Source: an uncultured Thermoleophilia bacterium
Lineage (GTDB): Bacteria > Actinomycetota > Thermoleophilia > UBA2241
Direction of reading: 5' to 3'
Assembly (NCBI GenBank): GCA_963765635.1
Contig: CAVXXF010000002.1
Location: 210,363-274,362 of the forward strand
DNA: 64,000 nucleotides
The position numbers and the translations under genes are program-made. Below the pieces are notes generated by a model. The model was given only the letters and a program-made list of their open reading frames with translations. It did no database searches and had not been told where the DNA came from. Below are positions 9,401 to 38,048 of the stretch, in pieces (within the stretch, counting starts at the first letter, position 1; each line of letters opens with the position of its first letter).

Positions 9401-9473
9401 GGGGCGAGGGTATCATGGAGCCAGGAGATACCCACTCTGCCGCAGGCGACAGGCGGGAGGCGAAGTGAGGCCC

Positions 9474-14777: not shown

Positions 14778-14873
14778 GGTTTCCCCCAGCGTTGCTGCCG
14801 CTCGAGGGGCGCAGAGGATGTATCATGACCCCCCCTGGGGCCGGAACCTGCCCGGCTGTCGACTACCTGAAGA

Positions 14874-19073: not shown

Positions 19074-19098
19074 GACTTCTTTCTCCTCCGTTGGACGG

Positions 19099-20409: not shown

Positions 20410-20413
20410 GCGC

Positions 20414-20671
20414 TTACTCCTTGAGCTTTCGCGTGACCGTGGGCGCGAGCTCGGCGGCCGGCGTGGGGACGCCGTCGACGAGCTCGCCGGCGACGACCAC
20501 GGTACCGGGGTCGTCGCTGACGAGCAGGTGGTCTGAGGCGCAGGCGCGAGGGCAGCCATTGACGTGCACGGTGACTCCCGGATCTACACCAGGGTCCTCG
20601 GCGAGCAGTTCGCCGGCCACGGCGGTACGGTCGATGTGGGGGTTGCAGCCCCCGCAGTACACGACCTTCAC
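20414..20671 (-). CDS. Small 85-aa four-cysteine protein (CxxC...CxxxC), thioredoxin-like or metal-binding; translationally coupled to abfD
   Basis: Own translation: MKVVYCGGCNPHIDRTAVAGELLAEDPGVDPGVTVHVNGCPRACASDHLLVSDDPGTVVVAGELVDGVPTPAAELAPTVTRKLKE. The GTG start overlaps the abfD TGA (GTGA). Stop is 4 nt before the abfT ATG. In the track this DNA is hidden inside the junk ORF 20414..21364. Confidence 0.55.
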   Translation of the reverse strand: MKVVYCGGCNPHIDRTAVAGELLAEDPGVDPGVTVHVNGCPRACASDHLLVSDDPGTVVVAGELVDGVPTPAAELAPTVTRKLKE

Positions 20672-22167
20672 GCGTCGGCTACCGCCGTGGGGGCCTTGAC
20701 CTTGCCCTTGTCCCACGGTTTGCCCACGCCGGCCAGCGCCTTGGCCAGATCCTTCTTGTGATCGATGTTGGACTGGCGCGCGATCATGATGCGCTGCGCC
20801 TGCGGTGAGCCCGCGCCGTGCATGCTCTCGGTGCGGTAGCCGACGGCCGCGGTGCCCAGCGTGAGGTTTTCGACGAGGCGCAGGATGCGCATGCGGTCGA
20901 TGGTCGGCGTGTCGCACTGCCCCACGAGATACTTCTCGACGATGGGGCCGAGCTTTTCGTCGGCGAGGTCGTGAGCCGACGGCATGGTGACCATGAGGCC
21001 GCCGGCGATGTCCTCGGCGAGGCGCGCGATCTCGTAGGGGAAGCGCGTGACGTTCTGCTTGCACACGTTGGCCAGCAGCATGTCGATCTGGAAGTTGCCG
21101 GCCGGCATCTTGACGCCCTCGTAGGAGCAGGCGAGCCCGCACGAGAACAAGGTCTCGTTGAGATGCGTCATCTCGATGAGCTTGTCCTTGATGTGGCTGG
21201 CCCTGGCGGCGCCGTTCATGTCGGCGGCTGTGGCGGCGGCGCCGATGAGCACGTCGCCGACGCCGACCTTGCAGCCGCCGTAGCTCTGGCGGTGGAAGCC
21301 GGCGAAGCGCTCGACGAGCGCTCCGGAGAACTCGATCTCGCCGCACAGGTACACCCTGTCCCACGGCACGAACACGTCGTCGAACACCATCAGTGCCTCT
21401 TGCCCGCCGAACTGGGCGTTGCCCACGTCGAGGTCGTTGCCCTCGAGCTTGCGCGTGTCGCAGCTCTGGCGGCCGTAGATGTAGTACACGCCCTCGGCGT
21501 TGGCCGGGCAGCTGAAGCTCACGGCGTAGTCCTCGTCGCCTTCGCGCATGGCGACCGTGGGCATGACGATGATCTCGTGAGAGTTGCAGGCGCCCGTCTG
21601 GTGCGCCTTGGCGCCGCGCACCACGATGCCGTCATCGCGCTTGTCGACGATGTGCAGGTACATGTCGGGGTCGGGCTGCTGGTGGGGCGCCAGGCCGCGA
21701 TCCCCCTTGGGATCGGTCATGGCGCCGTCGGCCACGAGGTCGTTGTCCTGCAGGTACTGGACGTACTTCTTGAAGCGCTCGTGGTACTGCGTGCCTCGCG
21801 CCTTGTCCGTCTCGTAGGTCACGGAGTACAGGGCGTTGATGGCATCCATGCCCACGCAGCGCTGGAAGCACGAGCCTGTCTTCTGGCCCAGCAGGCGCTG
21901 CATCTTGACCTTCTTGCTGAGGTCGTCGGTGGACTGGTGGATGTGGGTGAAGCGGTTGACCTTCTTGCCCGTGAGGTGGCTGGTGGCCAGCATGAGGTCT
22001 TCGTACTCGGGCAGAGCCGCCAGCTCGTAGGTCATGGCGATGCAGTTGATGCTGGGGCGGATCACGGGGTGGTCCACGTAGTCGTCGATCTGCTCGCCGA
22101 ACATGTAGATCTTCAGGTGCAGGTCGGCGATGCTCTGGCGGAACTCCTCGGGCGTCTTGAGAGCCAT
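20668..22167 (-). CDS. abfD: 4-hydroxybutyryl-CoA dehydratase / vinylacetyl-CoA delta-isomerase
   Basis: 500 aa from MALKTPEEFRQSIADLHLKIYMFGEQIDDYVDHPV.... Characteristic Cys/His [4Fe-4S]-FAD enzyme pattern (CFQRCVGMD; HQTGACNSHE; C..C). Confidence 0.85.
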   Translation of the reverse strand: MALKTPEEFRQSIADLHLKIYMFGEQIDDYVDHPVIRPSINCIAMTYELAALPEYEDLMLATSHLTGKKVNRFTHIHQSTDDLSKKVKMQRLLGQKTGSCFQRCVGMDAINALYSVTYETDKARGTQYHERFKKYVQYLQDNDLVADGAMTDPKGDRGLAPHQQPDPDMYLHIVDKRDDGIVVRGAKAHQTGACNSHEIIVMPTVAMREGDEDYAVSFSCPANAEGVYYIYGRQSCDTRKLEGNDLDVGNAQFGGQEALMVFDDVFVPWDRVYLCGEIEFSGALVERFAGFHRQSYGGCKVGVGDVLIGAAATAADMNGAARASHIKDKLIEMTHLNETLFSCGLACSYEGVKMPAGNFQIDMLLANVCKQNVTRFPYEIARLAEDIAGGLMVTMPSAHDLADEKLGPIVEKYLVGQCDTPTIDRMRILRLVENLTLGTAAVGYRTESMHGAGSPQAQRIMIARQSNIDHKKDLAKALAGVGKPWDKGKVKAPTAVADA

Positions 22168-22548: not shown

Positions 22549-23910
22549 ATGAGCACATTCGTCGACGAGTATATGGCCTGGCTGAAGGCCAAGAACCCTG
22601 CTGAGCCCGAGTTCCATCAGGCAGCGATGGAGGTCGCGGAGTCCCTCGAGGTCGTCCTCGACAGGCACCCGGTCTATCGCGAGAAGAAGATCCTCGAGCG
22701 CATCTCCGAGCCCGAGCGCGTCATCCTGTTCCGCGTGCCCTGGATCGACGACAAGGGCGAGGTCCAGCTCAACCGCGGCTTCCGCATCGAGATGAACAGC
22801 GCCATCGGCCCCTACAAGGGCGGCATGCGCTTCCACCCCACCGTGTACCTCGGCCTCCTCAAGTTCCTCGCCTTCGAACAGGTGTTCAAGAACTCTCTGA
22901 CCACGTTGCCCATGGGCGGCGGCAAGGGCGGCTCCGACTTCGATCCCAAGGGTAAGAGCGACAACGAGGTCATGCGCTTCTGCCAGAGCCTCATGACCGA
23001 GCTGTGCCGGCACATCGGCCAGTTCACCGACGTGCCCGCCGGCGACATCGGCGTGGGCGGCCGTGAGATCGGCTTCATGTTCGGCCAGTACAAGCGCGTG
23101 CGCAATGAGTTCGTCGGCGTGCTCACCGGCAAGGGTCTGAACTGGGGCGGTTCCCTGATCCGCCCGGAGGCCACGGGCTACGGCGCCGTGTACTTCGCCG
23201 CCGAGATGCTCGCCACGCGCGGCGAGACCCTTGAGGGCAAGACCTGCCTCGTCAGCGGCTCCGGCAACGTGTCGCAGTACGCCATGGAGAAGATCCTCGA
23301 CCTCGGCGGCAAGCCGGTCACCTGCTCCGACTCGGGCGGCTACATCTACGACGAGGCCGGCATCGATCGCGAGAAGCTCGCCTTCGTGCTCGAGCTCAAG
23401 AACGTCAAGCGCGGCCGCATCAGCGAGTACGCCGACAAGTTCCCGGGCGCCGTGTACACGCCCGTCGACAAGGCCAAGGACCACAACCCGCTGTGGGCCC
23501 ACAAGGCAGACTGCGCCTTCCCCTGCGCCACGCAGAACGAGATCAACGCCAAGGACGCCCAGAACCTGGTCGACAATGGCGTGTACCTGATCAGCGAGGG
23601 CGCCAACATGCCGACGGTGCCCGAGGGCGTCAACCTCTTCGTTGAGAAGAAGCTCCTCTACGGCCCCGGCAAGGCCGCCAACGCCGGCGGCGTGGCCACC
23701 TCGGGCCTCGAGATGAGCCAGAACAGCCTGCGCCTCGCCTGGACGCGTGAAGAAGTGGACGCGCGCCTGCACGGCATCATGAAGGCCATCCACAAGCAGT
23801 GCATCGACGCCTCCGCCGCCTACGGCTTCGAGGGCAACTACGTGGCGGGCGCCAACATCGCCGGCTTCCTCAAGGTCGCCGACTCGATGCTCGACCAGGG
23901 CGTCGTCTGA
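22549..23910 (+). CDS. gdhA: NADP-specific glutamate dehydrogenase
   Basis: MSTFVDEYMAWLKAKNPAEPEFHQA...KGGMRFHP...GGGKGGSDFDPKGKS. Hexameric GDH signature including the catalytic Lys region. Confidence 0.9.
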   Translation: MSTFVDEYMAWLKAKNPAEPEFHQAAMEVAESLEVVLDRHPVYREKKILERISEPERVILFRVPWIDDKGEVQLNRGFRIEMNSAIGPYKGGMRFHPTVYLGLLKFLAFEQVFKNSLTTLPMGGGKGGSDFDPKGKSDNEVMRFCQSLMTELCRHIGQFTDVPAGDIGVGGREIGFMFGQYKRVRNEFVGVLTGKGLNWGGSLIRPEATGYGAVYFAAEMLATRGETLEGKTCLVSGSGNVSQYAMEKILDLGGKPVTCSDSGGYIYDEAGIDREKLAFVLELKNVKRGRISEYADKFPGAVYTPVDKAKDHNPLWAHKADCAFPCATQNEINAKDAQNLVDNGVYLISEGANMPTVPEGVNLFVEKKLLYGPGKAANAGGVATSGLEMSQNSLRLAWTREEVDARLHGIMKAIHKQCIDASAAYGFEGNYVAGANIAGFLKVADSMLDQGVV

Positions 23911-23940
23911 CCGACCGAGCGACTCAAAGGAGCTAGTACG

Positions 23941-24282
23941 ATGAAAAAGATCGAGTGCTTCATTCAGCCCTACAACCTCGACACCGTCGCCGAGGCGCTG
24001 GCCGTCGAGGGCGTGCTCGGCATGTCCGTCGGCGAGGTCAAGGGCTTCGGCGTGCAGAAGGGCTTCACGCGCGGCGAGGACGTCAAGGCGCACGAGTACC
24101 GCTTCCACCCCAAGATGAAGGTCGAGATGGTCGTGCTCGAGAGGGACGTCGAGCGCATCGTGGCGGCCATCACCAAGTCGCTGAAGAGCAACCAGATCGG
24201 CGAGGGCAAGATCTTCGTGCTGCCGATCGACGACGCCGTGCGCACGCGCACCGGCGAGCGCGGTCGCGACGCTATCAAGTAG
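23941..24282 (+). CDS. P-II (GlnB/GlnK)-family nitrogen regulatory protein, divergent
   Basis: 113 aa. MKKIECFIQPYNLDTVAEALAVEGVLGMSVGEVKGFGVQKG...GKIFVLPIDDAVRTRTGERG. P-II fold with T-loop region. Confidence 0.75.
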   Translation: MKKIECFIQPYNLDTVAEALAVEGVLGMSVGEVKGFGVQKGFTRGEDVKAHEYRFHPKMKVEMVVLERDVERIVAAITKSLKSNQIGEGKIFVLPIDDAVRTRTGERGRDAIK

Positions 24283-24327
24283 CACGCCTGACTGCGGCTG
24301 CGGCCGCAGGCGCGACGAGTACACGAG

Positions 24328-24372
24328 GGGCCCGGCGCCGTTTCAGCGGCCGGGCCTCTCGGCTTTTCTGTC
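24328..24372 (+). terminator. Intrinsic terminator after the gdhA-P-II operon
   Basis: Stem ggcccggc / gccgggcc with an 11-nt loop, followed by tctcggcttttctg. Confidence 0.55.
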
Positions 24373-25038
24373 ACGCGCGCGAGAGCGGCGGCTGCGCCGC
24401 GCTCCCTCGCTTCGCGGGGGCGTCACGGGGCTGCCCCTGGGCTCGCTGTAGGGTCTGCGGCTTCAGCCCGCCGTCACTGCTGCCGATGATGGGAGCAGTC
24501 CTGAGGGGCTCCGCTGCGCTCCGCCCCGGGATATGAAGGTTTCGGGAGTTTCGTGTTGCACCGCTAACGGGCACACGGTAGAGTGCCCCACAACGGACGT
24601 GCCCGGACGGGCGTCCGACGGCGTGTAGGAGGCTACGAAGAGGGAGGTGGGTGCTTCTGCCGGAGAAGGAAAGTCGTGGCTCGCGTTGTAGAGAGACACC
24701 TGACCGAGTCTATCTGGAGGTCGTTCGACCTTGAGGGTCCCCAAAATCAGAAGCGCACAACTCGCGGCTCCGGTCCTCGCTGGACTCCCACGCCGCGGTC
24801 GTTATAGAGTGTGTAGTTGTGTGGAGTAAGCAGCACAGGGGGCGTTGTGTTCGTTCGTGCAGCGACGAGCAGAACGCGAAAGCGGGTCAGTGCATGGCCC
24901 CGACTCAGGCGGGTAGGGCTCTGCAAGCAAGCCTTGGAGGTGGTCGTGTCGTGAAAAAAATATGCGTCCCCGTGGGTGCATCATCCCACGTCAATTTGGC
25001 TGAAAGCCATCGTAGTGAACCACTCAGGAGGTCGTAAC

Positions 25039-27673
25039 ATGCAGCAAACGAAACGAAGGAGTAAGAAGGGCGTCATCCTTCTTGCGTTGACGATCGCCTT
25101 GCTGGTCTTGGCGTTCGTGCCGGCCGCGATGGCCGCCGGGCCGGGTTTCCTCACGGTGAACAACGGCGCCACCATCATCGGCGACACCACACGTCACGCT
25201 CCAGTTCAAGAGTGACGCTGTCGTTCTGGGCATCACTCAGTACACGATTCAGGACTCCAACGCAGGTGCTGGTCTCTTCGTTCCCCCGTCGCCGACCAAG
25301 GTGCCCTACGTCGCCGACGCGCTCATCGACATCGACTACACGATGGCGAGCACGGCGACCCCGGTCGTGGGCCAGTCCTTCACGGTGCGGGTGCGTTTCT
25401 ATGACGCCGGCAACAACGTCGTGGACACTTACGACCGCAACCGTGGTTTTCGACAATACCAAGACGGTCTCGGTGCTCGACTGGAACGGCTATGGCATCG
25501 CCGGCGACTACGGCACGACGCTGGTTCGGCGTACCGTCGCGCCTTCACGCCGGTCCGGGCCAATCTCTCCACCACCGGCGCTGCGCCTCACTCCATCGTC
25601 TGGAAGATCGACAGCGGCGCTTGGGCGGATCTTCTGTGCCCGCGGCTGTCGACCCGATCGACTTCGGTAGCATCTTCGCCGACGGCAAGCACACGATCGC
25701 AGCACTACGGTGTCGCAGCCGATACGCTGATCACTGACGGCGCAGTCACCTTCAGCGAGTTCGGCTGGGACATCGACTGCCTCCGACCGTGGACCTTCAG
25801 CAGAGGCCCCAGCACGACCAAGTGGTACGGCAACGCGCCGATCCCGTGGGCCGCGACGATCACTGACGACACCGGCTCGGGCGTGGCTCCGACGCCGCTC
25901 GTCAGCTATACCGACGCGGCGGCTCACTGGCGTTCGTGACGCCACCCCGCTGCCGTGGTCGATGTACCGCTATCAGGCCAGCGGCATCGTCCCGGTCGGC
26001 GCTGACGTGAATGTGCACCGCTGTCGACATGGTCGGCAATGGCGGCACCGATCTGGATACGCCTCTCAGGTGGGACCTCATCGCTCCTCATACCTCCTAC
26101 ACACTCGAACACCCAACTGCAAACGCAGACAGCATCGCGGGCTGGACCAACAAGGACGTCAAGGTGACGTTCCACGCGATGGACCCGGGCGCTCCCTTGA
26201 CGGGCTCCGGCGTGGCCTACACCGAGTACATCGAGGGTAACGCCACCTCGACCGCGCCTGCGTTCAGCGCGTCGGGCACCAAGCTCACAGTCGCTGCCGA
26301 TGGCACGTCTTCGATGACCGTCACCGAGACGGCTCCCACCGGCCCCCGCGTCGTCTGGTTCCGCTCGGTCGACAAGGCCGACCCGGCCAACAAAGAAGTC
26401 TGGCAGTCGGTCTATATCTTCATCGACAAGCTCGCCCCGACGTTCACAACCGACGCTCCGAGCTGGTGGATCAACGGCCCGACTGTCCAGATTTCTTGAT
26501 CTCCCTGACTGTGGAGGATCTGAACAGCGGCGTCCTCTCGCCTCCGGGCCTCGAGTACAAGGTCCCCGGCTGGCATGGAGCAATAGCCGACTGGACGGCC
26601 GGCACGTCCATCGCTCTCTCGGTGGACTATCTCGGCCACTTCACCGACGGGCTCTATGACTACATGTGGCGTGCCTCCGACTTGGCCGGCAACACGGGCG
26701 AGGGCAGCGGCAAGTTCGGTATCGACTCGCGTGCTCCCGTCACCGACGGCGCCGCGGGCTGGATCAACGGCACCAAGCCGTACGTCCTGACAGCGACCGA
26801 CCAGGTCATCGGCGCCGGTACTGCCGCGACGTCCTACCGCGTCGACCAGGCCACCCCATGGACCACTAACGTCGCCGGCACCGTGGCGACACAGCTCATG
26901 ACTGAGCTGCCGCTCTTCGCTCAGGTCCAGGGTGCTCTGCACACGATCGACTTCGCGTCCTTGGGACGCGGCGCTCCCGTACGGCTACACGCCCGTTACG
27001 GGCATTCCGAGCTGGCATTTCGGAAACTACGAAGGCCTGACGTTCGTGTGGGGCGGCATCAGTGAGCAGCGCATCACCACGATCACCGGCTACAAGACCC
27101 GCACCGTGCAGCTCGACATCACGGCTCCTGCGGTCACCGCCATGGATCCCAAGCTCGGCGAATGGCAGAAGGGCCCGGCCATCGTCAACTTCAGCGGCAC
27201 CGATGTTGGCTCCGGCTATGCCTACACCGAGTGGAAGACCAGCGGCTCCGACTGGACCAAGGGTGAGGTCGCCTCAGTCGGCGGCAACGGTGAGATCACC
27301 GTCACCTACCACGGCGTCGACAAGGTCGGCCTCGTGTCGGCCGACCAGACCATCATGGTCAAGGTCGCCTCGCACCCGTCCGAGCGTCACCGGCGGCAAC
27401 GTCACCGTCAAGAAGGGCCACAAGGCCACCATCCGCTTCAACGTCACTGCGGTCACGCCGACGGCCACCAGCGTCGTCATCGAGATCCGCAACAAGGCCA
27501 CTGGCAAGACGTACATCACCAAGCGTTATGCCAACGTGACCACGAATTCCGATCAGACCAGGTCCTTCAAGGTCAATCTCAAGAAGGGCAAGTACAACAT
27601 CCGCATCGGCGCCACCGATGCAGCCGGCAACGTGCAGGCCAAGAGGGGCGGCGGCACTCTGACGGTCAAGTAA
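25039..27673 (+). pseudogene. Secreted multi-Ig-like-domain surface protein, pseudogenized (at least 5 frameshifts/stops), paralog of the two downstream genes
   Basis: AGGAGG SD and signal peptide (MQQTKRRSKKGVILLALTIALLVLAFVPAAMAAGPG). Coding signal then continues through track ORFs 25212, 25301, 26011, 26466, 26932 and 27062 in changing frames. Repeated D-x-AGN motifs. C-terminal domain (...KGKYNIRIGATDAAGNVQAKRGGGTLTVK) homologous to the C-termini of 27918..29516 and 29679..31190. Confidence 0.7.
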
Positions 27674-27917
27674 GTCACGACCGCCTTCACTCGAAGGCAG
27701 CTGCAGTGGGCGGGGCGCCGAAAGGCGCCCCGCCCATTTTTTGTGCCCGGCAACAGGTTCGAGGGGCGGTCGGAGGGTACGCTGAGCAGTGTGGAAGGCC
27801 GCAGAACACGTGGCCGTCTCGAGAGGGCGCCTTGCCTTTGCAGGCTCAGCCCGGTAGAACTAAGGCAAGGGACCGCTGGCGCTTCGCCCGCCAGACCAAC
27901 GGCATCGGAGGTACCGC

Positions 27918-29516
27918 ATGGGCAGACTGACACATGGTTCACACAAGACGCGCCGACGTGGCGTCGCACGCGGCGTGAAGGTGGGGAGCCTGGTCGCGTT
28001 GCTGGCGCTGCTCGTGGCAGCGCCCGTGGCGCTGGCGGCGGTCGACAAGCAGCACGTCGTACTACGAACTTCGCACGACAACGGCAATCCGGGCGACAAC
28101 CACTGGAGGAACACCAACCAGACGGTGTCTGTCCTGGTCCAGCCCAGTGTGGGCACCACGGCCACGGCTTACTTCAGCTCCGACGGCGGCGCGACCTACA
28201 CTTCGAAGACCTACGGGACCATGGGTACCGCCGCCTTCGATTTCCTCGTGATCGCCGAGGGGTCCAATGCGGTAAGGTACGCCGCCACCGATAGTGGGGG
28301 GGCCACCGAGGCCACGAAGTCGCCCGGCTACGTCAACATCGACAAGACCGCCCCGGTCACCACGCCCACGGGCCTCGCACCAGTCTCGACGCAGACCGAT
28401 GACGCCAAGTGGTCCAAGGATGTCACGCGGACTGTCACGCTTGCGGCGACAGACGTAGTCGCGGGCATCAGCACGTCCGGCGTGCGCTGGAGCTTGCGGA
28501 GGATCAACAGCGGCTCTGTGGCCACGAGCGACACGGCCTCCGTCACCTTCACGCTGACCAAGGGCAGCGGTGGCGTGGTCGAAGGCGCCAACGCCGTGAC
28601 CTACTCGGCCGTGGATTGGGCGGGCAACTTCGAGACTACCCGCACCGGGTACGTCAACATCGACACCATCACGCCGACGACGACTCCCTCGCCGAATCTG
28701 GCCGCGAATGCGACGACCGGCTGGCGCAACACGCCGGCCACCGTCACGTTCGGTTGGACCGATGTCTCGTCGGGCGTGCCCACCGGGGGTACGACGTATC
28801 GGGTGAACGACGGAAACCCGACGGTCTATTTCAGCCCGTTCACGGTGAGCACGCAGGGCTCGACGAAGCTCTCGTATCGCTCGTTCGACAGGGCTCAGAA
28901 TGTTGAGGCCACGCAGACTGCGTACGTCAACATCGATGAGACGTCCCCGACCGTGAGCGCCGCGACGGCGCCGGCGGGCAGCTCGGGCTGGTACAACACC
29001 GACGTCGTGGTCAAGATTACGGGCGTCGATGCTCTATCGGGCATCGCGAAGACGCAGTACCGCCTCCAGGCAACTCCCCCGCTGCAGTGGGTCGACGCCG
29101 CGAGCGATCAGTTCACCGTGCTGTCGAGCGTCAATGCCAAGCAGACGTTCCAGTACCAGGCTGTGGACAAGGCCGGCAACGCGAGCGCTCTTGGCACGCT
29201 CGAGCTCAAGATGGACTCGGTCAGGCCCCAGGCCTCTGGCAAGGCGGCCTCGGGCAGGCACGGCAAGAACATCAAGCTCAAGTACAAGTTCACCGACAAC
29301 ATGAGTCCGTCGGCGACTGATGCATGGGTGAGGATCACGAAATCCAACGGCGCCGTGGTGAAGAACCAGAAGCTCAACGGCACCAAGGCTGTGAACAAGT
29401 GGTACTCCTTCAAGTGGAAGGCTGGGTCCAAGGGGACCTACAAGTACTACGTGCACGGCTTGGACCTCGCCGGGAACGCGTCGAAGACGAGCGCGGCGAA
29501 GATCAGGGTGAAGTAG
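27918..29516 (+). CDS. Secreted surface protein with tandem Ig-like (OmpL47/CHB_HEX_C-like, D-x-AGN-terminated) domains and a conserved C-terminal domain
   Basis: 532 aa. Signal peptide (VGSLVALLALLVAAPVALAAVD). Repeats ending YSAVDWAGNFE, YRSFDRAQNVE, YQAVDKAGNAS. C-terminal ...KGTYKYYVHGLDLAGNASKTSAAKIRVK. Confidence 0.7.
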   Translation: MGRLTHGSHKTRRRGVARGVKVGSLVALLALLVAAPVALAAVDKQHVVLRTSHDNGNPGDNHWRNTNQTVSVLVQPSVGTTATAYFSSDGGATYTSKTYGTMGTAAFDFLVIAEGSNAVRYAATDSGGATEATKSPGYVNIDKTAPVTTPTGLAPVSTQTDDAKWSKDVTRTVTLAATDVVAGISTSGVRWSLRRINSGSVATSDTASVTFTLTKGSGGVVEGANAVTYSAVDWAGNFETTRTGYVNIDTITPTTTPSPNLAANATTGWRNTPATVTFGWTDVSSGVPTGGTTYRVNDGNPTVYFSPFTVSTQGSTKLSYRSFDRAQNVEATQTAYVNIDETSPTVSAATAPAGSSGWYNTDVVVKITGVDALSGIAKTQYRLQATPPLQWVDAASDQFTVLSSVNAKQTFQYQAVDKAGNASALGTLELKMDSVRPQASGKAASGRHGKNIKLKYKFTDNMSPSATDAWVRITKSNGAVVKNQKLNGTKAVNKWYSFKWKAGSKGTYKYYVHGLDLAGNASKTSAAKIRVK

Positions 29517-29678
29517 GGACTGGGCTTCAGCAACGAAGCGCGTTCAGCGAGGGGCGGGGCGCCCGAAGGGGTCCCCGCCCCTCGCTCTTTGCGCGCGCGG
29601 CCGCTGTGGGCGCAGCGGGCATGCAGGCGACGTAGTACAATCAAGGGCGTTGCTCAATCGCTGAGGGGGCCTCAAGCA

Positions 29679-31190
29679 ATGCGCATCGTCGCCCGAGTAG
29701 GAGTCGTCACCGCCGTCCTTGCGGTCGTCCTTACAGGGGGCTTCTGGGGCTTCGCCACGCGCGCACAGGGTGCGGCGGTCCAGGGCGACAGCCCGGCGCC
29801 GTTCATCAGCACCCTGTCGCCCAGCGCGGCCGCGATCGGCGGTCCGGACTTCACGCTGACCGTAGACGGCAGCGGCTTCGTGCCGGGTTCCCAGGTGCAG
29901 TGGAACGGTGAGTCACGGCCGACCGCCTGTCTGTCGGCGAGGCAGCTCACCGCCCAGATCAGCGCCGCCGATATCGCGGCGGCACAGACGGCCGTCGTGA
30001 CCGTGCTCAACCCGCTCCCCGGCGGCGGCGTGTCACCGCCGTTCTCCTTCGCGGTCCAGGCGCCCAATCCGCTGCCGGACCTGACCGGCCTCAGCCCGGC
30101 TCAGGCTATGGTGGGCGACGGCGCCTTCGGCCTCACCGTCATCGGCAGCGGCTTCGTGCCGGGATCGACTGTGCTGTGGAACGGTGAGGACCGCACCACC
30201 GGCTACATCAACGAGTTCATGCTCGCGGCGACGATCCGCGCCGGTGACGTCGCCGCCGTCGGTACTGCGTTCGTGAGCGTACTGAACCCGGCGCCTGGCG
30301 GCGGCCAGTCGCTGTCGGCGAGGGTGTTCACCATCATGTATCCGGCGCCGACGATGCAGCTGCTCGAGCCGGCCTCTGTGTGGGCGGGCGGCCTCGCGTT
30401 CACGCTCGCGGTCGCGGGCAGCCGATTCACGCCCGTCTCCGTGGTGCAGTGGGCGGGCGTCGATCGCCCGACGATCTATGTATCACCCGAGCGCCTCGAG
30501 GCGCAGATCTCCGCCGCCGAGATTGCCCACGCGGGCGCCCTCAGCGTGCGCGTGTTCACGCCCGGCCCCGGGGGCGGGCTCAGCGCCCCGTTGCTCGTCG
30601 ACGTACGCGCCGACGACGTGGCCCCCGTCACCGCGGCGAGCGGGCTCAAGGGCACCTGGCATCGAGGCACCACCAGGTTCACCCTGGTGGCGACGGATGT
30701 TGGCCTCGGGGTCCAGTGGACCTACTACCGTCTCGGACAGCTCGGCGACCTCAAGGACGGCCCCACGGTCGTCGTCCCCGCACCGAAGAACCACTCGAAC
30801 GATGGTATGCACACGGTGGTCTTCTACTCCGTGGACAAGGTGGACAATCTGGAGGCGCCCAAGAGCGTACAGGTGGGCATCGACACGCGGCCGCCGGTCA
30901 CGACCGTGGCCGCCGCCAGAGTGGCCCGCGGCGGCACCCTGCGGCCCAAGTATCGCATCGACGACGCCATGAGCACGCGGGCTCTCGACGCCCGCCTGAC
31001 GGTCAGCACCGCGGCCGGCAAGGTGGTGCTGCGCTGCGACCTCGGGCATCCGGCCACGCGCACGTGGCGCACGGGAGGTGCGTGCCGGGTCACGCTCCCC
31101 AAGGGCACGTACCGGATGCGCGTCCTGGCCCACGACCTGGCCGGCAACGCGCAGTCAGGCACGAGATCCGGCACGCTGACGGTGTACTGA
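29679..31190 (+). CDS. Secreted surface protein: three tandem IPT/TIG-like repeats followed by Ig-like domains and the family C-terminal domain
   Basis: Start at MRIVARVGVVTAVLAVVLTGGFWGFATRAQGAA (signal). C-terminal ...KGTYRMRVLAHDLAGNAQSGTRSGTLTVY. Confidence 0.7.
   Translation: MRIVARVGVVTAVLAVVLTGGFWGFATRAQGAAVQGDSPAPFISTLSPSAAAIGGPDFTLTVDGSGFVPGSQVQWNGESRPTACLSARQLTAQISAADIAAAQTAVVTVLNPLPGGGVSPPFSFAVQAPNPLPDLTGLSPAQAMVGDGAFGLTVIGSGFVPGSTVLWNGEDRTTGYINEFMLAATIRAGDVAAVGTAFVSVLNPAPGGGQSLSARVFTIMYPAPTMQLLEPASVWAGGLAFTLAVAGSRFTPVSVVQWAGVDRPTIYVSPERLEAQISAAEIAHAGALSVRVFTPGPGGGLSAPLLVDVRADDVAPVTAASGLKGTWHRGTTRFTLVATDVGLGVQWTYYRLGQLGDLKDGPTVVVPAPKNHSNDGMHTVVFYSVDKVDNLEAPKSVQVGIDTRPPVTTVAAARVARGGTLRPKYRIDDAMSTRALDARLTVSTAAGKVVLRCDLGHPATRTWRTGGACRVTLPKGTYRMRVLAHDLAGNAQSGTRSGTLTVY
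29793..30618 (+). repeat. Three tandem ~85-aa (~255-nt) IPT/TIG-like coding repeats inside the 29679..31190 gene
   Basis: P-x-I/L-x-x-LSP-x-x-A-x-x-GG-x-F-x-LTV-x-GSGFVPGS-x-V-x-WNGE-x-R-x-T......NP-x-PGGG pattern recurs three times. Confidence 0.6.
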
Positions 31191-31204
31191 GGCGCGCGTA
31201 GCCC

Positions 31205-31564
31205 CTACGCCACCCACACCACTTCCGTGCGCAGGCGGTGCGCGAACGGCGCCTCCTGGGCCTCGAGCAGACGCCACTCATCGTGCGTGTAGACGAGCAG
31301 GTCCACCGGCACCGGGAAGCCGCTGATGGTGTCGAAAGCAAGGCCGCGCCGTAGCGGCGGCTCGCGGCACTCCGTGAGGACGACCACGAGGTCGAGGTCG
31401 CTGCCCACGCCCCAGTCGCCGCGCGCGTACGAGCCGAAATAGCCGACCCTCACGACATCCGAGCGGGAGGCTTTGAGGGCGGCGCCCCAGGCGCGCGCGG
31501 CCCCTGCTACCGCTTCAGGCGGCGGCCACGTAAGGACGTGCGAACTCGATGATCTCACGGGCAT
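31205..31564 (-). CDS. Nucleotidyltransferase (MNT)-domain protein, third copy
   Basis: ...VVRVGYFGSYARGDWGVGSDLDLVVVLTEC...VPVDLLVYTHDEW. Start (ATG MPVRSS..., or GTG 6 nt later) overlaps the upstream HEPN gene by ~45 nt. Confidence 0.65.
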   Translation of the reverse strand: MPVRSSSSHVLTWPPPEAVAGAARAWGAALKASRSDVVRVGYFGSYARGDWGVGSDLDLVVVLTECREPPLRRGLAFDTISGFPVPVDLLVYTHDEWRLLEAQEAPFAHRLRTEVVWVA

Positions 31565-31904
31565 AACGGAGTGCCTCGTCGCTGTGGATGACGCCGAAGT
31601 GCTCAAAGGGCGGGCCTTCGGCATGGCTGTTGGCGTAGCGCGTGGGGATGTAGAAGCCGTCGAGGACCTTGGCCTTCTCCACGAGATCCGTGGGAACAGC
31701 GACCGGCAGTTCACTCAAGAGGCGCGCCACCACGTGACCCCAGGCATCCTGAGCGAGAGAGAGGTGGACGGCCTTCACTGCCTTCTCGGCGGCCTGCTGG
31801 GCGGCGAAGCAGGCCCACTCGTGGCGTCCGTCACGGCGCGACGATTCCGCCTGCTCGAGATCGCGGAGTGCCTGTTCGAACCAATCGGCGGCGCGTGAAG
31901 TCAC
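31515..31904 (-). CDS. HEPN-domain protein partner of the third NTase; here HEPN precedes MNT
   Basis: 129 aa. WFEQALRDLEQAESSRRDGRHEWACFAAQQAAEKAVKAVHLSL...GFYIPTRYAN. HEPN helix pair plus R/Y-x-x-T-RY motif. Confidence 0.7.
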   Translation of the reverse strand: MTSRAADWFEQALRDLEQAESSRRDGRHEWACFAAQQAAEKAVKAVHLSLAQDAWGHVVARLLSELPVAVPTDLVEKAKVLDGFYIPTRYANSHAEGPPFEHFGVIHSDEALRYAREIIEFARPYVAAA

Positions 31905-32007
31905 GTCATTCCTTCTCTTGGGTTCGACGGCAGTCTACCACCTGCCTTGCGAGTTGCGTGGTCGCGACACAGCGGAGGTACTACAATCATGAGCGTCCTC
32001 AGGCCGT

Positions 32008-33892
32008 TCAATGACAGACGCTAGGACTCACCACGTGCTGAAGAGAATCTGGGACTTCCTCAACGAGTTCCTGCGCATCAACGCCATACGGCGGATGCTC
32101 GCCATCGTCGACGTGACGAGCCGCAGAAGTCGGCGGGCTGGTCGGGTTTGCCGTCCTCTTCGCGATCTTCGAAGGTATCGGCCTCGCGCTGCTGCTGCCC
32201 ATCCTGCAGTACGCCGACGGCGGTCAGACGGCCATCTTCGACAGCTCGGGCATCGTCTGGCAGGCGATCGCGAAGTTCATGGACTTCTTCCACCTCCCAG
32301 TCACGCTGCCGGTGCTCCTGGTGCTCGCGTTCATCCCCATTCTGCTGCGGCAGGTGGTGTTCTACTTCAACGCCTGGTACTCAGCCGTGGTCTCCACCCG
32401 CATCGGCATGCGCCTGCGGATGCAGACCCTCGACACCATCCTCGACGCCGACCCCGAGTTCTTCTCGCGCCACTCCGTCGGACATCTCGTGGGCGTCGTC
32501 ATCACCCAGACGGCAGTGGGCGGCAGCGCGATCCTTGCCGTCATCAAGCAGCTCTCGATCGCGCTGCTCATGCTGGTCTACGTCGCGATACTGCTGGCGC
32601 TCTCGGTGCCGCTCACGCTCAGCATCCTGTTCTTCGCGGTCATGGTGTCGCTGGCAGTCCGCGCCAACATCAGGCGCATCCGCGAGTACGGTCTCGTGAC
32701 CGCTCGGGTCACGCAAGAGGTATGGAGCACGATCGTCGAGCGCTTCGGCATGATGCGCCTGATCAAGCTGCGCGACCAGAAGCAGCTCGAATCGAACCGG
32801 GTCCGGGGTCTTCTGGAAAGGCTCCGCGCGGTCGATGTGCGGCAGGCCCGCCTGGGAGCGAACATCGAGGTGACGGCCGACCCCCTGCTCATGCTCTCGG
32901 CGTTCGTGACGCTCTACATCGGCATCGCGGTGCTGGGCATGACCCTGCCCCAGCTCGGGCTGCTGCTCTTCGTGCTCAACCGGCTCAACGCCAAGGTGAA
33001 GGAGTTCAACGCCGGCCGTCAGGCGATCTCGCAGAATATGGCCGGATTGCTGCTCGTCAAGGACCTGACTGTCGAGGCTGCGGCCGCCAACACCATACGT
33101 CGCAGGTCGGCGCCCTTCGAGGGCCTTCGAGCGCGAGCTCGTGCTCGCCGACGTGACGTTCGAGTATCCGGACACGGACGCGCCTGACGGTACGGTGGTG
33201 TCCGCGGACCGCTCCGTGCTGAAGGGGATCTCCGTCGCGATCCCCGCGGGGTCGTTCACGGCAGTGGTCGGTCGCTCCGGTACCGGCAAGTCGACGCTGG
33301 TGGAGCTCCTCCCTCGCCTGCGGGAGGCCACGAGCGGCAGCATCACGTACGACGGCACGGACATCAAGCCGAATTCGACGTGGGTACCCTGCGCCGGGGC
33401 ATCGGCTATCTCACCCAGGACGCGATGCTGTTCAACGACACCGTCCGCGAGAACCTCGTCTACGGTCTTGGCTTCGAGCCGTCGGACGGGCAGATCCGTG
33501 ACGCCCTCGAAGGCGCTCACGCCGGCTTCGTCTACGACCTCCCGCAGGGGCTCGAGACCATGCTGGGCGATCGAGGAGTGCGGTTCTCGGGGGGTGAGCA
33601 ACAGCGCATCGCCCTCGCGCGCGTGCTTCTGGAAGACACGTCGATCGTGATCCTCGACGAGCCGACCAGTGCGCTGGACTCCGAGTCCGAGACATACATC
33701 CAGGACGCGCTCGCAAAGCTGCATGGGCACAAGACTCTCATCGTCATCGCGCACCGCCTCGCGACAGTCATCCAGGCGGACCAGCTGTTGGTCATCGAGG
33801 ACGGGCGCATCGTGGAGCGCGGGACGCACCAGGAACTCGTGGCTCGAGCGGGCGCGTACCAGCAGCTGTTTCAGAGCCAGCTGCTGGCGTAG
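32008..33892 (+). pseudogene. ABC exporter (fused TMD-NBD, MsbA/polysaccharide-exporter type) disrupted by at least three frameshifts
   Basis: TMD spread over track ORFs 32008 and 32279; NBD over 33141 (Walker A GRSGTGKST) and 33380 (signature FSGGEQQRIALAR, Walker B IVILDEPTSALD, H-loop IAHRL). Frame changes at ~32118-32124, at 33114-33133 (10-bp tandem duplication ccttcgaggg/ccttcgagcg; removing one unit restores ...RRRSAPFERELVLADVTFEYP) and at ~33368-33376. Confidence 0.75.
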
Positions 33893-33898: not shown

Positions 33899-35896
33899 CT
33901 ACGAGACGAGCTTCCGGTACAGGCGCAGGTAGCCGTCGACCATGCGCTCGACGGGGAACCGCTCCTCGACCCGGCGCGCGCCGGCAGCGGCGAGGGCGCG
34001 TGACAGTACGGGGTCGTCCAGAAGCCGGGCGACGGCACGGGCGAGCGCTGCCTCGTCGGCGGGATCGACGAGCAGACCGGTCGCTCCATCGACGACCACC
34101 TCAGGGAGGCCACCCACACGCGTGGCGACGACGGGCACGCCGAGCGCGAGCGCTTCCATCGCAGTCAGCCCCGAGGCCTCTGAGAGCGACGGGACGACCA
34201 CGACGTCGAGCGCCGCGAGCAGGGGTGGCACAGATTCCACGTAGCCGAGGAACTCGATACGGTCGGCCATGCCGAGTGCTGCGGCGAGTGCTCGCAGTTC
34301 GTCCTCGTCGGATCCGTGGCCCGCGACGACGAAGCGCACACCGGGATGGTCTGCGGCCAGGATCGCCGCGGCGCTGACGAAGTACTCAGCGCCCTTGATG
34401 CGCTCGAGGCGCCCGATGAAGCCGACGCGCGCACTCGCCTGGCGGAGTGCGACGGCACTCTCGCCCTCAGCGTCGCGCCTGAGCCGAGCGAGGTCGATAC
34501 CGTTGGGGATCACGGTGATCCTGCTCGCGGCGACCTTGTCTGCGACAAGTCCCGTCGCGACGGCCTGCGAGACCGCGACGAAGCGGGTGACGTAGCGTCG
34601 CGTCAACCGGTCGAGAGTCATGCGGAGGGCAGAAACGGCTGGCGCTTCCCCGTCTAGGCGCGCGGCACCAGGGACGACGTGGACCGTATTCACGACCGGC
34701 ATGCGGGCACGCGACCCCACCAGCCGCGCAATCAGGTTCGTCAAGTAGCCCGTCCCCTGGATGAGCTGACCGCCTCGCAGCCGGTCGGAGAGGAGGGTGA
34801 TGAGCGACGGCAGGCAGCGCAGCGTGAAGTCGACGGGGATGACGTCGACGCTCTCGAGATCGCGTGTCTCGCGTTCCAGCGCCGAGCCTGCCGCGCAAAC
34901 GACGCACGGCCTGACGTCCGCGGCCGACAACCCGCGCAGCAGGGCCAGAAGCTGCACTTCTCCGCCGCCGAGCGACGGCCCGGGGAAGTTGTTGATGAAG
35001 GCGACCGCGAGACCGCCGGTCACGGGGGCATGCTTGGCGGGCGCGCCCGCGCGCAGAGAACGGATACTCGCCGTGAGCCGTTCGAGAGCAGTCGGCCCAA
35101 CGGTCTTCGCGAGGATCTTCCTGACCGCGATGTTCCACTGCAGTCGCGTGGTGGAACGACGGGCCGCGGCGAGCTGGGAGTTGGAGAGCAGCCCGCTGCC
35201 CACGACCTCGGTGATGACGCGCAGGTCTGTCTCGCGCATGAGGAGGGCGTTCGCGGACTTCTGCACCGTGCCGCGCCGGTGGACGGACAGCGGTTGGGCG
35301 ATGTGCTGGTGCCTGAAGCCGTGGGCCAAGGCGAGCAGCCAGAACAGATAGTCCTCCGCGTAGATGCCTTCGCGGAAGCCGCCGACGGCATCGAAGACCT
35401 CGCGTCGGTACACCGCGCCGACGCCGTAGAAGCAGGCCGCGAGCAGCTCCTCAAGAACGCAGCCGGCGGGGTCCGCCCAGAGCGCTTGAGGTCGCGCCGT
35501 CTCCCGGCGGCCGTCCTCGTACTCGTACCATCCGTCGGACGTGAAGACCGAGGCCTCGGGGTTATCGCGGATGCAGGCGTCGAACGTGGCCAGATGATCG
35601 GGGAGCAACAGGTCGTCGGCCGAGAGCATCACCAGGAGGTCGCCGCGCGCGCTGGGTACCGCCGCGTTGTACGCGCCGCCGGAGCCGCGGTTCGCCTGGG
35701 ATACCACGTGGACGCGCGCATCCTCCCTGGCGAATCGCTCGGCGAGCCGAGCGTCGCCGTCCGTTGAGCCGTCGTCGACGATGACGAGCTCCCAGTCGGT
35801 GATGGTCTGCGCCTGTACCGACTCGATCGTCCCGGCCAGCGTGGCCTGGGCGTTGAATGCGGGGATCGTGACCGAGAAGCGCGGATTATCAGCCAT
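33899..35896 (-). CDS. Bifunctional glycosyltransferase: N-terminal GT2 fused to C-terminal GT4, intact copy A
   Basis: From MADNPRFSVTIPAFNAQATL...VIVDDGSTDG...SADDLL (GT2). GT4 part ...EASGLTAMEALALGVPVVATRVGGLPEVV. The track ORF begins 39 nt further upstream at an alternative start. Confidence 0.8.
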   Translation of the reverse strand: MADNPRFSVTIPAFNAQATLAGTIESVQAQTITDWELVIVDDGSTDGDARLAERFAREDARVHVVSQANRGSGGAYNAAVPSARGDLLVMLSADDLLLPDHLATFDACIRDNPEASVFTSDGWYEYEDGRRETARPQALWADPAGCVLEELLAACFYGVGAVYRREVFDAVGGFREGIYAEDYLFWLLALAHGFRHQHIAQPLSVHRRGTVQKSANALLMRETDLRVITEVVGSGLLSNSQLAAARRSTTRLQWNIAVRKILAKTVGPTALERLTASIRSLRAGAPAKHAPVTGGLAVAFINNFPGPSLGGGEVQLLALLRGLSAADVRPCVVCAAGSALERETRDLESVDVIPVDFTLRCLPSLITLLSDRLRGGQLIQGTGYLTNLIARLVGSRARMPVVNTVHVVPGAARLDGEAPAVSALRMTLDRLTRRYVTRFVAVSQAVATGLVADKVAASRITVIPNGIDLARLRRDAEGESAVALRQASARVGFIGRLERIKGAEYFVSAAAILAADHPGVRFVVAGHGSDEDELRALAAALGMADRIEFLGYVESVPPLLAALDVVVVPSLSEASGLTAMEALALGVPVVATRVGGLPEVVVDGATGLLVDPADEAALARAVARLLDDPVLSRALAAAGARRVEERFPVERMVDGYLRLYRKLVS

Positions 35897-38048
35897 CGAG
35901 GACCTCCCGGTAGACGTCGAGGATCTGCTCGGCAACCACGTCGGGTGCGAAGCGCGCTCTGCGCGTATCGGTGAAGCGCTCGCGGGTCGAACTCAGTGAA
36001 GTGGTCGAGCATCCAGTCGAGACCCTCCGCCAGCGCGTCGACGCTCATCGGCTCGACGAGCCGGCCGACCTCCGGGGTGACGAACTCCTCGGGCCCCCCG
36101 CAGCGCGTCGAGACCACCGGGCGGCCGCACATGAGTGACTCCGCTGCCGATACCGAGAAGGTCTCGTGCGTGCTGCTCACAACGGTGAACGCCGATTCCG
36201 CGAGAATCTCGGCGGACCTCCTCGGCGGACATCGCGGCCGGTGAACTCGACCACGTCGGCTGAGCCCAGCGAGACGGCGATCGCTTCGGCTCGGCGCTGC
36301 GACTCCCCGTCGCCCACGAGCCTGAGCCGGAAGTCAGTCCGCCGTCCCGCAGAGTCTTCACCGCCTGTAGCAGGCCGGGAGGTTCTTTGCGGGCCCCATG
36401 ACCGAGATATGCGCGATCGTGGACGTCGGCCGAGACGGCATCGGCGCGGGCTCTGACACCGGCACCACGTTGGGGATGACGACGGGATCCACGGCGAGGC
36501 CGGAGCTCCACGAGCCGGTCGGCCAGAAAGCGGCTCACCGCGATGGTGCGCGATGCGTCTCGCGCGAGTGGCCTGTAGCAGCGATGGGCACGACGCCCGG
36601 GTACCTGACGAGCTTGCGCTCGCTGGCGGCCAGATACTCCTCGGAGTGCTCGGTGACCACGTACGGGATGCCGTAGCGGCGCTTGATGGCTCGCGCGATG
36701 AGCCCGGCGGGCCACAGCGCCTGGACGTGGACGATGTCTGGGGTGCCCCAGGCGTCGCGCAGGGCGTCGAATGCGGCCAGGGCGGTGCGCCTGTATGTCA
36801 CCAGCCATCCGTAGCGTCCGGCGGACCCGGCACTGACGCGGACCACGACGGCCCCCCCCTCTCCCTCCACCGTTGCAGGAAGCGACGTCTTGCTTGGATC
36901 CAGGTGGAGGACCGCAACGTCCCCCCTCCGCGCGAGGGCGTGCACCTGCTGCTGGATGAATACCCCAGCTGTAGGGTTGCCGGCGCTCGGGAACCAGCTG
37001 GGGACGACCAGGATGCTCAACGCTCGCTCCACACCGCCGACGGCGTCGGTCGGTGGCGTCGACGCGCAAAGGCGATGCATCCTTGTCTCCAGCGACTTGC
37101 GAGCTTTGCTCTCGGCGATCAGCCGACGGATGGGCCTGAAGAGCCAGGTCACTCTGTGCGCGGCGGCAAGGATCTCTCGAGCTGCGCGCTTCCCGAGATA
37201 CCGCTCGAGCGACTCTCTGAGGCGATCGGCCTGGCGAGCGAGCTCCTGCTCCTGCGCCACCGTCACCACTTGACGACGCTTGGCATCAAGCGCCGCCTCC
37301 ACTCTGGAGGCCATCTGCGGAGTGAGCGGGCACTCCTGCAGGAGGGCGGCAAGAGACACGACGAGCGCCTCCGCGCCAGCAAGCGCGTCTTCGCTGCGCC
37401 GTCCGGCCCTGTCTTGCCTGTAGTTGTACAGCGGGGTAGGCAGATACAGCGCCTTGGCTCCCTGTGCCGTTGCTCTCAACCAGAAGTCGTAGTCTTCGCA
37501 GTGAATGCCTGACCGGAAGCCTCCGAGCTTCTGGTAGCGGTCGCGGCTGACCATCGCGCCGCCCACGGCGATGACGCACTCCGTAAGGAGGTCGATCAGG
37601 CCAAACGAAGTCACCACGGTAGAAGCGCTGAACAGCGACTCCCGACCGTTGCGCGCCTACGACCTTGAGGTTGGGGTGGTAGATGTCGTGGCCTGGGTGG
37701 CCGCGTATGAATGCGTCCATCGCACGAAGGTAGTCCGGGTGCAGCTCATCGTCGGCATCGAGAAAGCCCACGTAGTCCCGTGGCGCACAACCCGACACCG
37801 GTGTTGCGCCCTTGGGCGACGCCGTGGTTCTCTTGTCTAGCCACGACGATCCGTGGGTCAGTCGCCGCGTACCGTGTGGCGATGGCCTCAGTGCCGTCAG
37901 TCGATCCGTCGTCGACGACGACAAGGCTCCAGTCGGGGAGGCTCTGGGCGCGCACCGACTCAATGGCCGCGCCGATTGTCGCCTCGGCGTTGAATGCCGA
38001 CATCACGATCGAGTATGCGCGATCCGCGCGTGTCTTGACGGTGCCCAC
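35889..38048 (-). pseudogene. GT2-GT4 bifunctional glycosyltransferase paralog, copy B, shattered by at least 5 frame changes
   Basis: Homologous pieces in five different minus-strand frames: GT2 N-terminus (ORF 37746..38048: YSIVMSAFNAEATIGAAIESV...VVVDDGSTDG); GT2 middle (37286..37963: DYVGFLDADDELHPDYL); GT2 C-terminus plus GT4 N-terminus (36535..37617: ...CEDYDFWLRA...ILVVPSWFPS...); GT4 middle (35993..37069 frame); GT4 C-terminus (35629..36180: SAAESLMCGRPVVSTRCGGPEEF). The true C-terminal RFAPDVVAEQILDVYREVLDG* (own translation) mirrors copy A's RFPVERMVDGYLRLYRKLVS*. Confidence 0.7.

Follow-up and report, generated by a model that had tools for sequence, protein, structure and literature searches.

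The locus described here raises two questions. Is a gene that appears heavily broken in a metagenome-assembled genome (MAG) also broken in the living cell, and what might be the role of the cationic domain that ends its product and the products of two neighbouring genes? The locus lies within a stretch of 64,000 nucleotides from an uncultured Thermoleophilia bacterium (assembly GCA_963765635.1, contig CAVXXF010000002.1, positions 210,363 to 274,362). This 64-kb stretch has a G+C content of ~68% and is referred to as the window; coordinates are those of the window unless a relative is named. Three consecutive genes on the + strand, here named copy 1, copy 2 and copy 3, encode secreted all-beta surface-type proteins with immunoglobulin (Ig)-like domains. 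They are composed of known building blocks and represent a new family member in an unstudied lineage. A preliminary description of the region had proposed a rapidly evolving, possibly phase- or antigen-variable adhesin family with one member caught as a pseudogene. The explanation we favour as likely is an old trio of Ig-like paralogs in which the cationic terminal domain would act as an anchor and the lesions of copy 1 would be artefactual.

The three genes are placed between gdh/glnB-like genes and a cluster for the synthesis and export of cell-envelope glycans, as three separate transcription units. The glutamate dehydrogenase/P-II pair (22549-24282) precedes them, and a nucleotidyltransferase/HEPN pair on the - strand (31208-31904) follows. 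Five related loci, all on MAG contigs, were available for comparison. Two of these, L001 and L002, are contigs of the ENA assembly ERZ25039459 and carry Flye-style contig names. The other three (L003 to L005) come from GTDB representatives, MAGs of the Microflora Danica series whose titles name uncultured Thermoleophilia or Actinomycetes; L003 is MFD00032.bin.3.236 and L005 is MFD09964.bin.1.366. They were found by a profile scan of genome contigs with alignment A2, whereas a contig scan seeded with copy 2 alone gave no relative. The gene order in L001 and L002 was the same, namely gdh, P-II, copy 1, copy 2, copy 3, MNT, HEPN and an ATP-binding cassette (ABC) exporter gene of 617 aa. Most of this order was also present in L003 to L005.

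Copy 1 (25039..27673, + strand) corresponds to a signal-peptide protein of ~873 aa with beta-sandwich modules and the cationic C-terminal Ig domain. Its coding signal switched frame many times, as seen in the G+C third-position frame plot and the three-frame translation. We placed the shifts by a purpose-written frameshift-tolerant protein-to-DNA alignment to four intact orthologs (P0001-P0004). Depending on the ortholog used, 11 to 13 events were counted, and the alignments agreed on ~11 frameshifts, each of 1-2 nt. These were located near 25189-25198, 25430-25439, 25521, 25528-25549, 25640-25652, 25699-25702, 25892-25925, 26016, 26482-26491, 26961 and 27373-27379. The frame changed by +1 at nine of the 11 sites and by +2 at the other two. 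Clean homology resumed directly at each junction, and the 873 corrected codons contained no in-frame stop. The gene had been described as split over at least six frames or stops; it is thus even more broken than proposed, but by frameshifts without any in-frame stop. In L001 and L002 copy 1 was intact (804 or 872 aa, the shorter form in L001), and the intact orthologs of 872-880 aa shared 65-69% identity over 100% of the query.

Small indels were present in further genes of the window. In total ~27 were counted: ~11 in copy 1, three in copy 2, three in the ABC exporter gene and ~10 in a glycosyltransferase gene. Copy 2 (27918..29516, + strand, 532 aa) carried three single-base insertions within 37 nt (28043..28079) relative to both L001 and L002, a C at 28043, a T at 28063 and a third at ~28079, which were supported by DNA and protein alignments. 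Together they add 3 nt and bring the sequence back into frame, yet a run of ~12 residues directly behind the signal peptide is altered (VDKQHVVLRTSHD in the window versus VTSSTSYANFAP in the relatives). A protein on record, P0030 on a 1.25-Mb contig, is identical to copy 2 of the window and probably carries the insertion error as well. The ABC exporter gene (32035..33892, + strand; fused membrane and ATPase domains, 617 aa in the relatives) had insertions of A at 32116, G at 33131 and CG at 33370-33371, which shifted the Walker A region to another frame. After correction its product shared 93% amino acid identity with L002, with a ratio of nonsynonymous to synonymous divergence (dN/dS) of 0.11. 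The GT2-GT4 fusion glycosyltransferase (35937..38048, - strand) was split over at least five open reading frames (ORFs) by ~8 one-base insertions and two one-base deletions, again without a stop codon. Its corrected form was ~88% identical to the L002 ortholog, and its dN/dS of 0.37 compares with 0.32 for an intact neighbour. The glycosyltransferases beside it (GT at 33899-35935 and GT2 at 38003-38959) looked intact. Sixteen events could be resolved at the DNA level, 14 of them insertions and two deletions, all outside long homopolymers.

Two candidate causes of the shifts were rejected. Homopolymer error did not fit, since the contexts were ordinary sequence with at most a 2-3-base run extended. 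A methylation motif (TCGA near some sites, noticed by eye) was unconvincing.

Single shifts were also found away from the variable locus. A Pfam scan of 31 other reading frames of the window gave near-complete domain coverage for 27, and an IMPDH-family gene (5079-6290, + strand) was the one with a partial match. Here a single frameshift near 6146 placed the conserved C-terminal ~33 aa (ending in …RTSMATCGYETLSSFQKAEVMVAPSLMTEGKKLQKEQDVGMG and the stop codon) in another frame. In L001 an HpaB-family gene (1571-3069 of that contig, - strand) was split into calls of 51 aa and 460 aa by a one-base deletion near 1743. Sporadic single shifts thus occur in these assemblies beyond the variable locus too.

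The relatives were affected unequally. L001, L002 and L004 were clean for copies 1-3 and the ABC exporter gene. In L003 copy 1 had ~8 shifts, copy 2 up to 7 and the ABC exporter gene one; in L005 the counts were 6-10 for copy 1, three for copy 2 and two for copy 3. In both cases in-frame stops were absent and the positions differed from those of the window. The Microflora Danica long-read catalogue is Nanopore-only and was assembled with metaFlye and a single Medaka round; its authors discuss Nanopore-associated errors and microdiversity (PMC12313526). The variant contigs 7606, 7607 and 7612 all carried the locus, two of them from ERZ25039459 and one from the MAG MFD00032.bin.3.236. Owing to their consecutive Flye-style numbers we take them as one assembly with coexisting strains.

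Based on these observations we consider it highly probable that the ~11 frameshifts of copy 1 are consensus errors of a Nanopore-only metagenome assembly. Such errors would arise at a locus where co-occurring strains differ, and in the living cell copy 1 is probably intact with ~875 aa. Anecdotally, the ABC exporter site 33126-33131 reads like a merge of L001-type and L002-type sequences. An enrichment of shifts at strain-differing sites is a powerless test here, because at ~9% strain divergence most 11-nt windows hold a difference anyway.

The competing explanation is that copy 1 is a genuine recent pseudogene, which decayed together with the ABC exporter and the glycosyltransferase as a surface glycoprotein module that was no longer needed or was lost under phage pressure. 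The distribution of the lesions speaks for it, as they are limited to particular genes with clean genes in between. A joint function of the three broken genes is plausible, and the envelope locus that holds them varies between strains. Furthermore, copy 1 had the highest dN/dS of the region (0.50). Real decay, however, should leave nonsense mutations, and none was present in ~2150 corrected codons despite at least 23 frameshifts. With a probability of 0.028-0.033 that a substitution creates a stop, and 23 indels, 6-8 stops are expected at 10 substitutions per indel (probability of none ≤ 0.002), and at a ratio of 5:1 the probability of none is 0.02-0.04. The excess of insertions (14 of 16) is the opposite of the deletion bias of bacterial pseudogenes reportedly described by Mira, Ochman and Moran in 2001. 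Neither large deletions nor insertion sequence elements were found, and the strong terminator-like hairpin directly following copy 1, of the intrinsic type (27705..27738, + strand; 15 pairs, 12 of them G-C, and a T run), was kept. The corrected copy 1 was 66-71% identical to P0001-P0004, which are 66-73% identical among themselves; the lineage of the window therefore shows no extra divergence in copy 1. The low dN/dS of the ABC exporter gene (0.11) and the same damage at different sites in independent MAGs of one Nanopore-only catalogue argue against decay as well. We regard a real pseudogene as improbable, and the preliminary description was probably wrong on this point, since the lesions look like consensus errors and the signs of neutral decay are absent.

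Several points nevertheless weigh against consensus errors as the cause. At three substitutions per indel the lack of stops would be unremarkable (probability 0.10-0.15). The only tie of the window to a Nanopore-only assembly is the identical P0030 on the 1.25-Mb contig, which has the same sources (ncbi, ena) as the Microflora Danica relatives. The lesions are unevenly spread: ~4 kb comprising copy 3, MNT, HEPN and most of copy 2 are clean, and so is a 2-kb glycosyltransferase gene between broken genes, which a simple low-quality region does not predict. It is also possible that surface protein, exporter and glycosyltransferase are one functional module that was lost together. The triple frame-restoring insertion of copy 2 could be real compensatory evolution.

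The preliminary description had further suggested phase or antigenic variation, in which copy 1 would be switched off by reversible slippage or would serve as a silent donor cassette. Such a system would be in keeping with a tandem arrangement of paralogs that share their ends, and with the fast divergence of the orthologs between strains. Yet no simple-sequence or homopolymer tract was present within or upstream of the genes; the best result of Tandem Repeats Finder was 2-2.7 copies of 9-12-nt units. All frameshift sites lay in ordinary sequence outside repeats, and eleven separate shifts cannot form a switch. Long DNA repeats between the copies were not found either. The longest repeat had 80 nt at 64-75% identity and was located inside copy 3, so that any DNA common to the paralogs is too short for gene conversion. 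Inverted repeats of the invertible-promoter type or a recombinase gene adjoining the genes were not seen. As far as can be judged from the sequence, we therefore consider both forms of variation extremely unlikely: the proposed phase variability lacks its repeat tract, and the antigenic variability lacks DNA similarity of conversion grade.

What did hold from that description is the rapid evolution, namely for orthologs between strains (69-88% amino acid identity versus 97-99% for flanking genes). The flanking metabolic genes differed from L002 by a synonymous divergence (dS) of 0.08-0.16 with a dN/dS of 0.06-0.16. Copy 2 was 87.5-89.6% identical to L002 depending on the method (dS 0.19, dN/dS 0.31), and its orthologs in L001 and L002 shared 81-88% identity. 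For copy 3 the values were 85-86% (dS 0.31, dN/dS 0.27) and for the corrected copy 1 ~70% (dS 0.42, dN/dS 0.50). Such a pattern is typical of envelope loci that differ from strain to strain. Pressure from phages or predators may drive strain differences in the outward-facing modules, as it does in surface and glycan loci. The three copies themselves are only ~28% identical to each other. Together with the same order of the three genes in at least five related loci this identifies them as old paralogs and speaks against a recent tandem expansion.

The composition of the three proteins was analyzed with Pfam and NCBIfam models. The OmpL47-type beta-barrel domain NF047446 (cut-off 40 bits) matched copy 2 with 120.1 bits in three stretches and copy 3 with 44.9 bits. 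In copy 1 the fragment 26932-27400 reached 40.3 bits and two further fragments were weaker, while the intact orthologs scored 68-95 bits. These internal modules are ~68 aa long. The preliminary description let the modules end in the motif D-x-AGN; this applies to some modules, but others read DRAQN, DKVDN or DMVGN. Copy 3 (29679..31190, + strand, 503 aa) consists of a putative signal peptide, three tandem repeats, one OmpL47-type module and the terminal Ig domain. Its repeats (approximately 29793..30620) matched NF058597 (CoaZ_rpt_PGGG, cut-off 30 bits) with 281.7 bits in three stretches, and the same three repeats matched Pfam TIG (PF01833, cut-off 20.9 bits) with 46.5 bits. At the DNA level they form a repeat family with a 273-276-nt period. 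Copies 1 and 2 had no match to TIG/IPT or NF058597. The repeats had been regarded as acquired by copy 3. They are present, but no recent gain is indicated, since full-length orthologs of copy 3 with 66-86% identity were found in four related loci. The N-terminal 320 aa of the copy 1 ortholog P0001, otherwise unannotated, were modelled as three beta-sandwiches and were closest to BIg50-52 of the adhesin SiiE. No enzymatic domain was found in any copy.

The domain search thus agrees with the preliminary description of a secreted Ig-like/IPT family, with matches to OmpL47-type, Big_13 and TIG modules. The signal peptides assigned to all three genes find their counterpart in a signal-like N-terminus in each, predicted from a basic n-region and a hydrophobic core followed by AMA, ALA or AQG (an AxA-like site). 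For copy 3 the ORF opens at a TTG at 29589; the ATG at 29679 is the start supported by orthologs, as those of 505 aa align from there.

All three proteins end in a related domain. A profile built from the last 100 aa of the copy 1 orthologs matched the termini of the other two copies end to end, with 29.1 bits (E 2e-7) for copy 3 and 20.9 bits (E 6.5e-5) for copy 2. The reciprocal profile matched the termini of copy 3 (35.8 bits) and copy 1 (28.7 bits). As controls, 3000 shuffled decoys were scored, the best with 8.6 bits, and none of the proteins' own internal modules exceeded 6.5 bits. The three termini therefore represent a subfamily distinct from the internal modules. Pairwise BLASTP gave matches of weak to moderate strength, with E-values of 0.003, 4e-7 and, over a longer stretch, 2e-13. 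The proposed shared C-terminal domain was confirmed by the profile comparisons, in which the similarity was formally significant (E 2e-7 to 6.5e-5).

The domain appears to be of the Big_13-type Ig fold and not a new fold. Pfam Big_13 (PF19077, gathering cut-off 27 bits) scored marginally above the cut-off in copy 1 (27.6 bits), above it in its orthologs (29.8-35.4 bits) and below it in copy 2 (23 bits) and copy 3 (22.8 bits). In P0001 and P0005 the best Big_13 stretch was the terminal domain. An AlphaFold2 model of the copy 2 terminal domain had eight beta-strands and a mean predicted local distance difference test score (pLDDT) of 89.8. A Foldseek search of the domain against the PDB returned generic sandwiches of the Ig, PKD, Fn3, CARDB and RhoGDI type, with template modelling (TM) scores of ~0.5-0.65 for PKD, Fn3 and Ig. 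Such generic matches alone give no functional lead. By sequence, the closest solved structure was the BIg repeat region of SiiE from Salmonella.

The charge of the domain sets it apart from the remainder of each protein. In copy 1 (domain at 27365..27670) the net charge was +15 and the isoelectric point (pI) 11.0. The corresponding values were +17 and pI 10.4 in copy 2 (29205..29513) and +11 and pI 11.3 in copy 3 (30879..31187), whereas the preceding passenger parts had a pI of 4.6-5.4. The terminal domain was present in 98 of 155 relatives retrieved. It ended at most 8 aa from the C-terminus in 96 of these, and more than one copy was found in one protein only. Across 93 relatives the median net charge of the domain was +14, with 97% at +5 or above, and the remainder of each protein carried -3.4 per 100 aa. 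The passengers differed according to precomputed Pfam lists, with PF14870 in P0078 and P0083, PF01436 in P0082, P0084 and P0090, and PF13517 in P0074 and P0098. When the terminal-domain profile (alignment A1) was compared with 1.84 billion representatives, 21,426 proteins were found, at the top of them giant adhesins that contain as many as 58 internal repeats. These homologous repeats had a median charge of -6, and only 0.5% reached +5 or more. A single, terminal and charge-inverted Big_13-type domain is thus a lineage-specific speciality of an otherwise ordinary fold.

A covalent or otherwise known anchor was not apparent. The three proteins contain no LPx[TSA][GAN] sortase motif and end in a beta-strand (...TLTVK, ...KIRVK and ...TLTVY). 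In the Pfam and NCBIfam scans of these proteins, tails of the type IX secretion system (T9SS), PEP-CTERM, other NCBIfam sorting tails and SLH, LysM or GW domains gave no match at E ≤ 0.1. Each protein combines an acidic passenger with one strongly cationic Big_13-type Ig domain, which may hold it non-covalently on the anionic cell envelope. The charge asymmetry would fit electrostatic binding of the domain to an anionic wall polymer. We tentatively propose, as a possibility we would not yet bet on, that the terminal domain is an undescribed module by which Thermoleophilia and related uncultured Actinomycetota anchor (or sort) proteins non-covalently at the envelope. The preliminary description had assumed an uncharacterised anchoring or sorting domain. 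Anchoring is indeed plausible and backed by the charge asymmetry, but the domain appears to belong to the known Big_13 Ig-like family.

Alternatively, the terminal Ig domain could be a secretion or sorting signal of a dedicated machinery, possibly cleaved, or a ligand-binding module of freely secreted proteins. The C-terminal domains of the T9SS of Bacteroidota, which are cleaved, are likewise terminal and single on varied passengers and are beta-sandwiches of ~80-100 aa. This shared pattern supports a sorting signal, as the domain described here is always extreme C-terminal and single-copy on passengers of differing domain content, and an ABC exporter gene is located 1 kb downstream. However, no NCBIfam sorting-signal model matched at the threshold given above, alignment A1 showed no conserved cleavage motif, and the proteins already appear to carry Sec-type signal peptides. 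The conserved charge of the domain (+11 to +17, on otherwise acidic proteins) also suits electrostatic wall binding rather than a targeting signal. We consider this alternative unlikely. Two points count against anchoring nonetheless: the role, plausible as it is, is deduced from only the position and charge of the domain, and the surface location of the proteins is itself predicted.

Comparison with known systems places the locus among familiar elements. OmpL47 is reportedly a surface-exposed protein of Leptospira interrogans (PMC2698987). Like OmpL47, the three proteins are exported and are built from several internal modules that match NF047446. In contrast, the host is a high-G+C actinobacterium and not a spirochaete, and a match to the cationic terminal domain was absent from OmpL47 in the data examined. 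With the Leptospira OmpL47 equivalog model NF047441 (cut-off 250 bits) the scores were just 87.5, 20 and 17.5 bits, and the three copies are therefore not OmpL47 orthologs.

Similarity to the Salmonella adhesin SiiE (PDB 2yn3/2yn5) was found at both ends of the proteins: the terminal-domain profile matched SiiE at E 1e-8, with the DxAGN strand common to both, and the N-terminal part of the copy 1 ortholog superposed best on BIg50-52. Giant BIg/Big_13 adhesins such as SiiE and the Marinomonas RTX adhesin (4p99), however, have thousands of residues, compared with 500-880 aa here. Their Big_13-type domain is acidic, internal and repeated tens of times, whereas here it is cationic, single and the last of the protein.

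The name 'choice-of-anchor' marks passenger domains that bear different C-terminal sorting signals in different lineages. Copy 3 has three repeats of the TIG/IPT and choice-of-anchor Z type (NF058597), but its sorting-signal position is occupied by an OmpL47-type module and the cationic Ig domain instead of an LPXTG, PEP-CTERM or T9SS tail. The wall anchors SLH, GW, LysM and CWB2 are also found at one end of varied passengers and would, by analogy, share the proposed job of a terminal module keeping an exported protein on a wall polymer. They differ in that no sequence match to them was obtained in the scans of the three proteins, and in that the fold here is an Ig-like sandwich.

A giant-adhesin version of the OmpL47-type building block may exist in other Actinomycetes MAGs. 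In L006, L007 and L008 (MFD03726, MFD04492 and MFD02138) the tblastn matches of copy 2 were continuous, overlapping and in the same frame over ~8-9.5 kb each, which suggests very long frames of many tandem modules.

These results bear on the use of such genomes. In a Nanopore-only MAG, a surface gene that is intact but differs between strains can take on the look of a heavily degraded pseudogene, which makes the locus a case of annotation hygiene. The same errors would silently corrupt neighbours, here the ABC exporter, the glycosyltransferase and, in the deposited copy 2 protein, 12 residues. At hypervariable loci, read-level checks are needed when pseudogenes are counted or surface proteins catalogued from such MAGs. 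To our knowledge there is almost no experimental cell-surface biology of Thermoleophilia. In soil members of this class the locus marks an envelope region that is hypervariable at the strain level, and its charge-inverted terminal Ig domain offers a candidate for protein retention on their wall that can be tested cheaply. If anchoring were correct, a cationic Ig domain would fill the slot held elsewhere by LPXTG, SLH or T9SS tails, with passengers as varied as OmpL47 strings, TIG, PF14870, PF01436 and PF13517.

Each of the three genes has its own terminator-like hairpin. A G+C-rich hairpin between copies 2 and 3 (29546..29586, + strand; 19-nt arms, 89% complementary, 3-nt loop) is related to the one following copy 1. 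A sigma-70 promoter scan gave no match, and a scan of 24200-32100 with Rfam gave only chance miRNA-type matches (E 0.14-0.9), with neither a riboswitch nor another RNA among them. The glycan cluster downstream comprises glycosyltransferases, a UDP-GlcNAc 2-epimerase, a Polysacc_synt_2 dehydratase, an initiating sugar transferase and a Wzy_C protein with TPR repeats. Within this part of the window the stretches 42306-43521 and 38960-39335 had no clear coding signal in the G+C third-position model, the sole candidate being a 96-aa ORF at 43057-43347.

The spacer between the P-II gene and copy 1 (24283-25038) is strain-variable. In the window it consists of ~750 nt without a convincing gene, whereas L002 carries an AAA_14/DUF4143 ATPase gene (8160-9413 of that contig) and L001 a 140-aa ORF (5663-6085). 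Three nucleotidyltransferase/HEPN-type (MNT-HepT-like) pairs are present within the 64 kb, at 7983-8566, 9387-~10100 and 31208-31904. The HEPN gene of the last pair (31515-31904) is full length in the window (129 aa) and has internal deletions of ~50 aa in L001 and L002.

Upstream, the region 17850-22167 (- strand) contains genes for an Fe-alcohol dehydrogenase, an acetyl-CoA hydrolase/transferase family protein, a small AF_0334-family protein and an HpaB-family protein, which are 97-99% identical to L002. Judged by its Pfam families, this row resembles a 4-hydroxybutyrate fermentation set. Furthermore, an MttB-superfamily (trimethylamine methyltransferase-like) gene at 14871-16331 (+ strand) adjoins a class-III aminotransferase gene.

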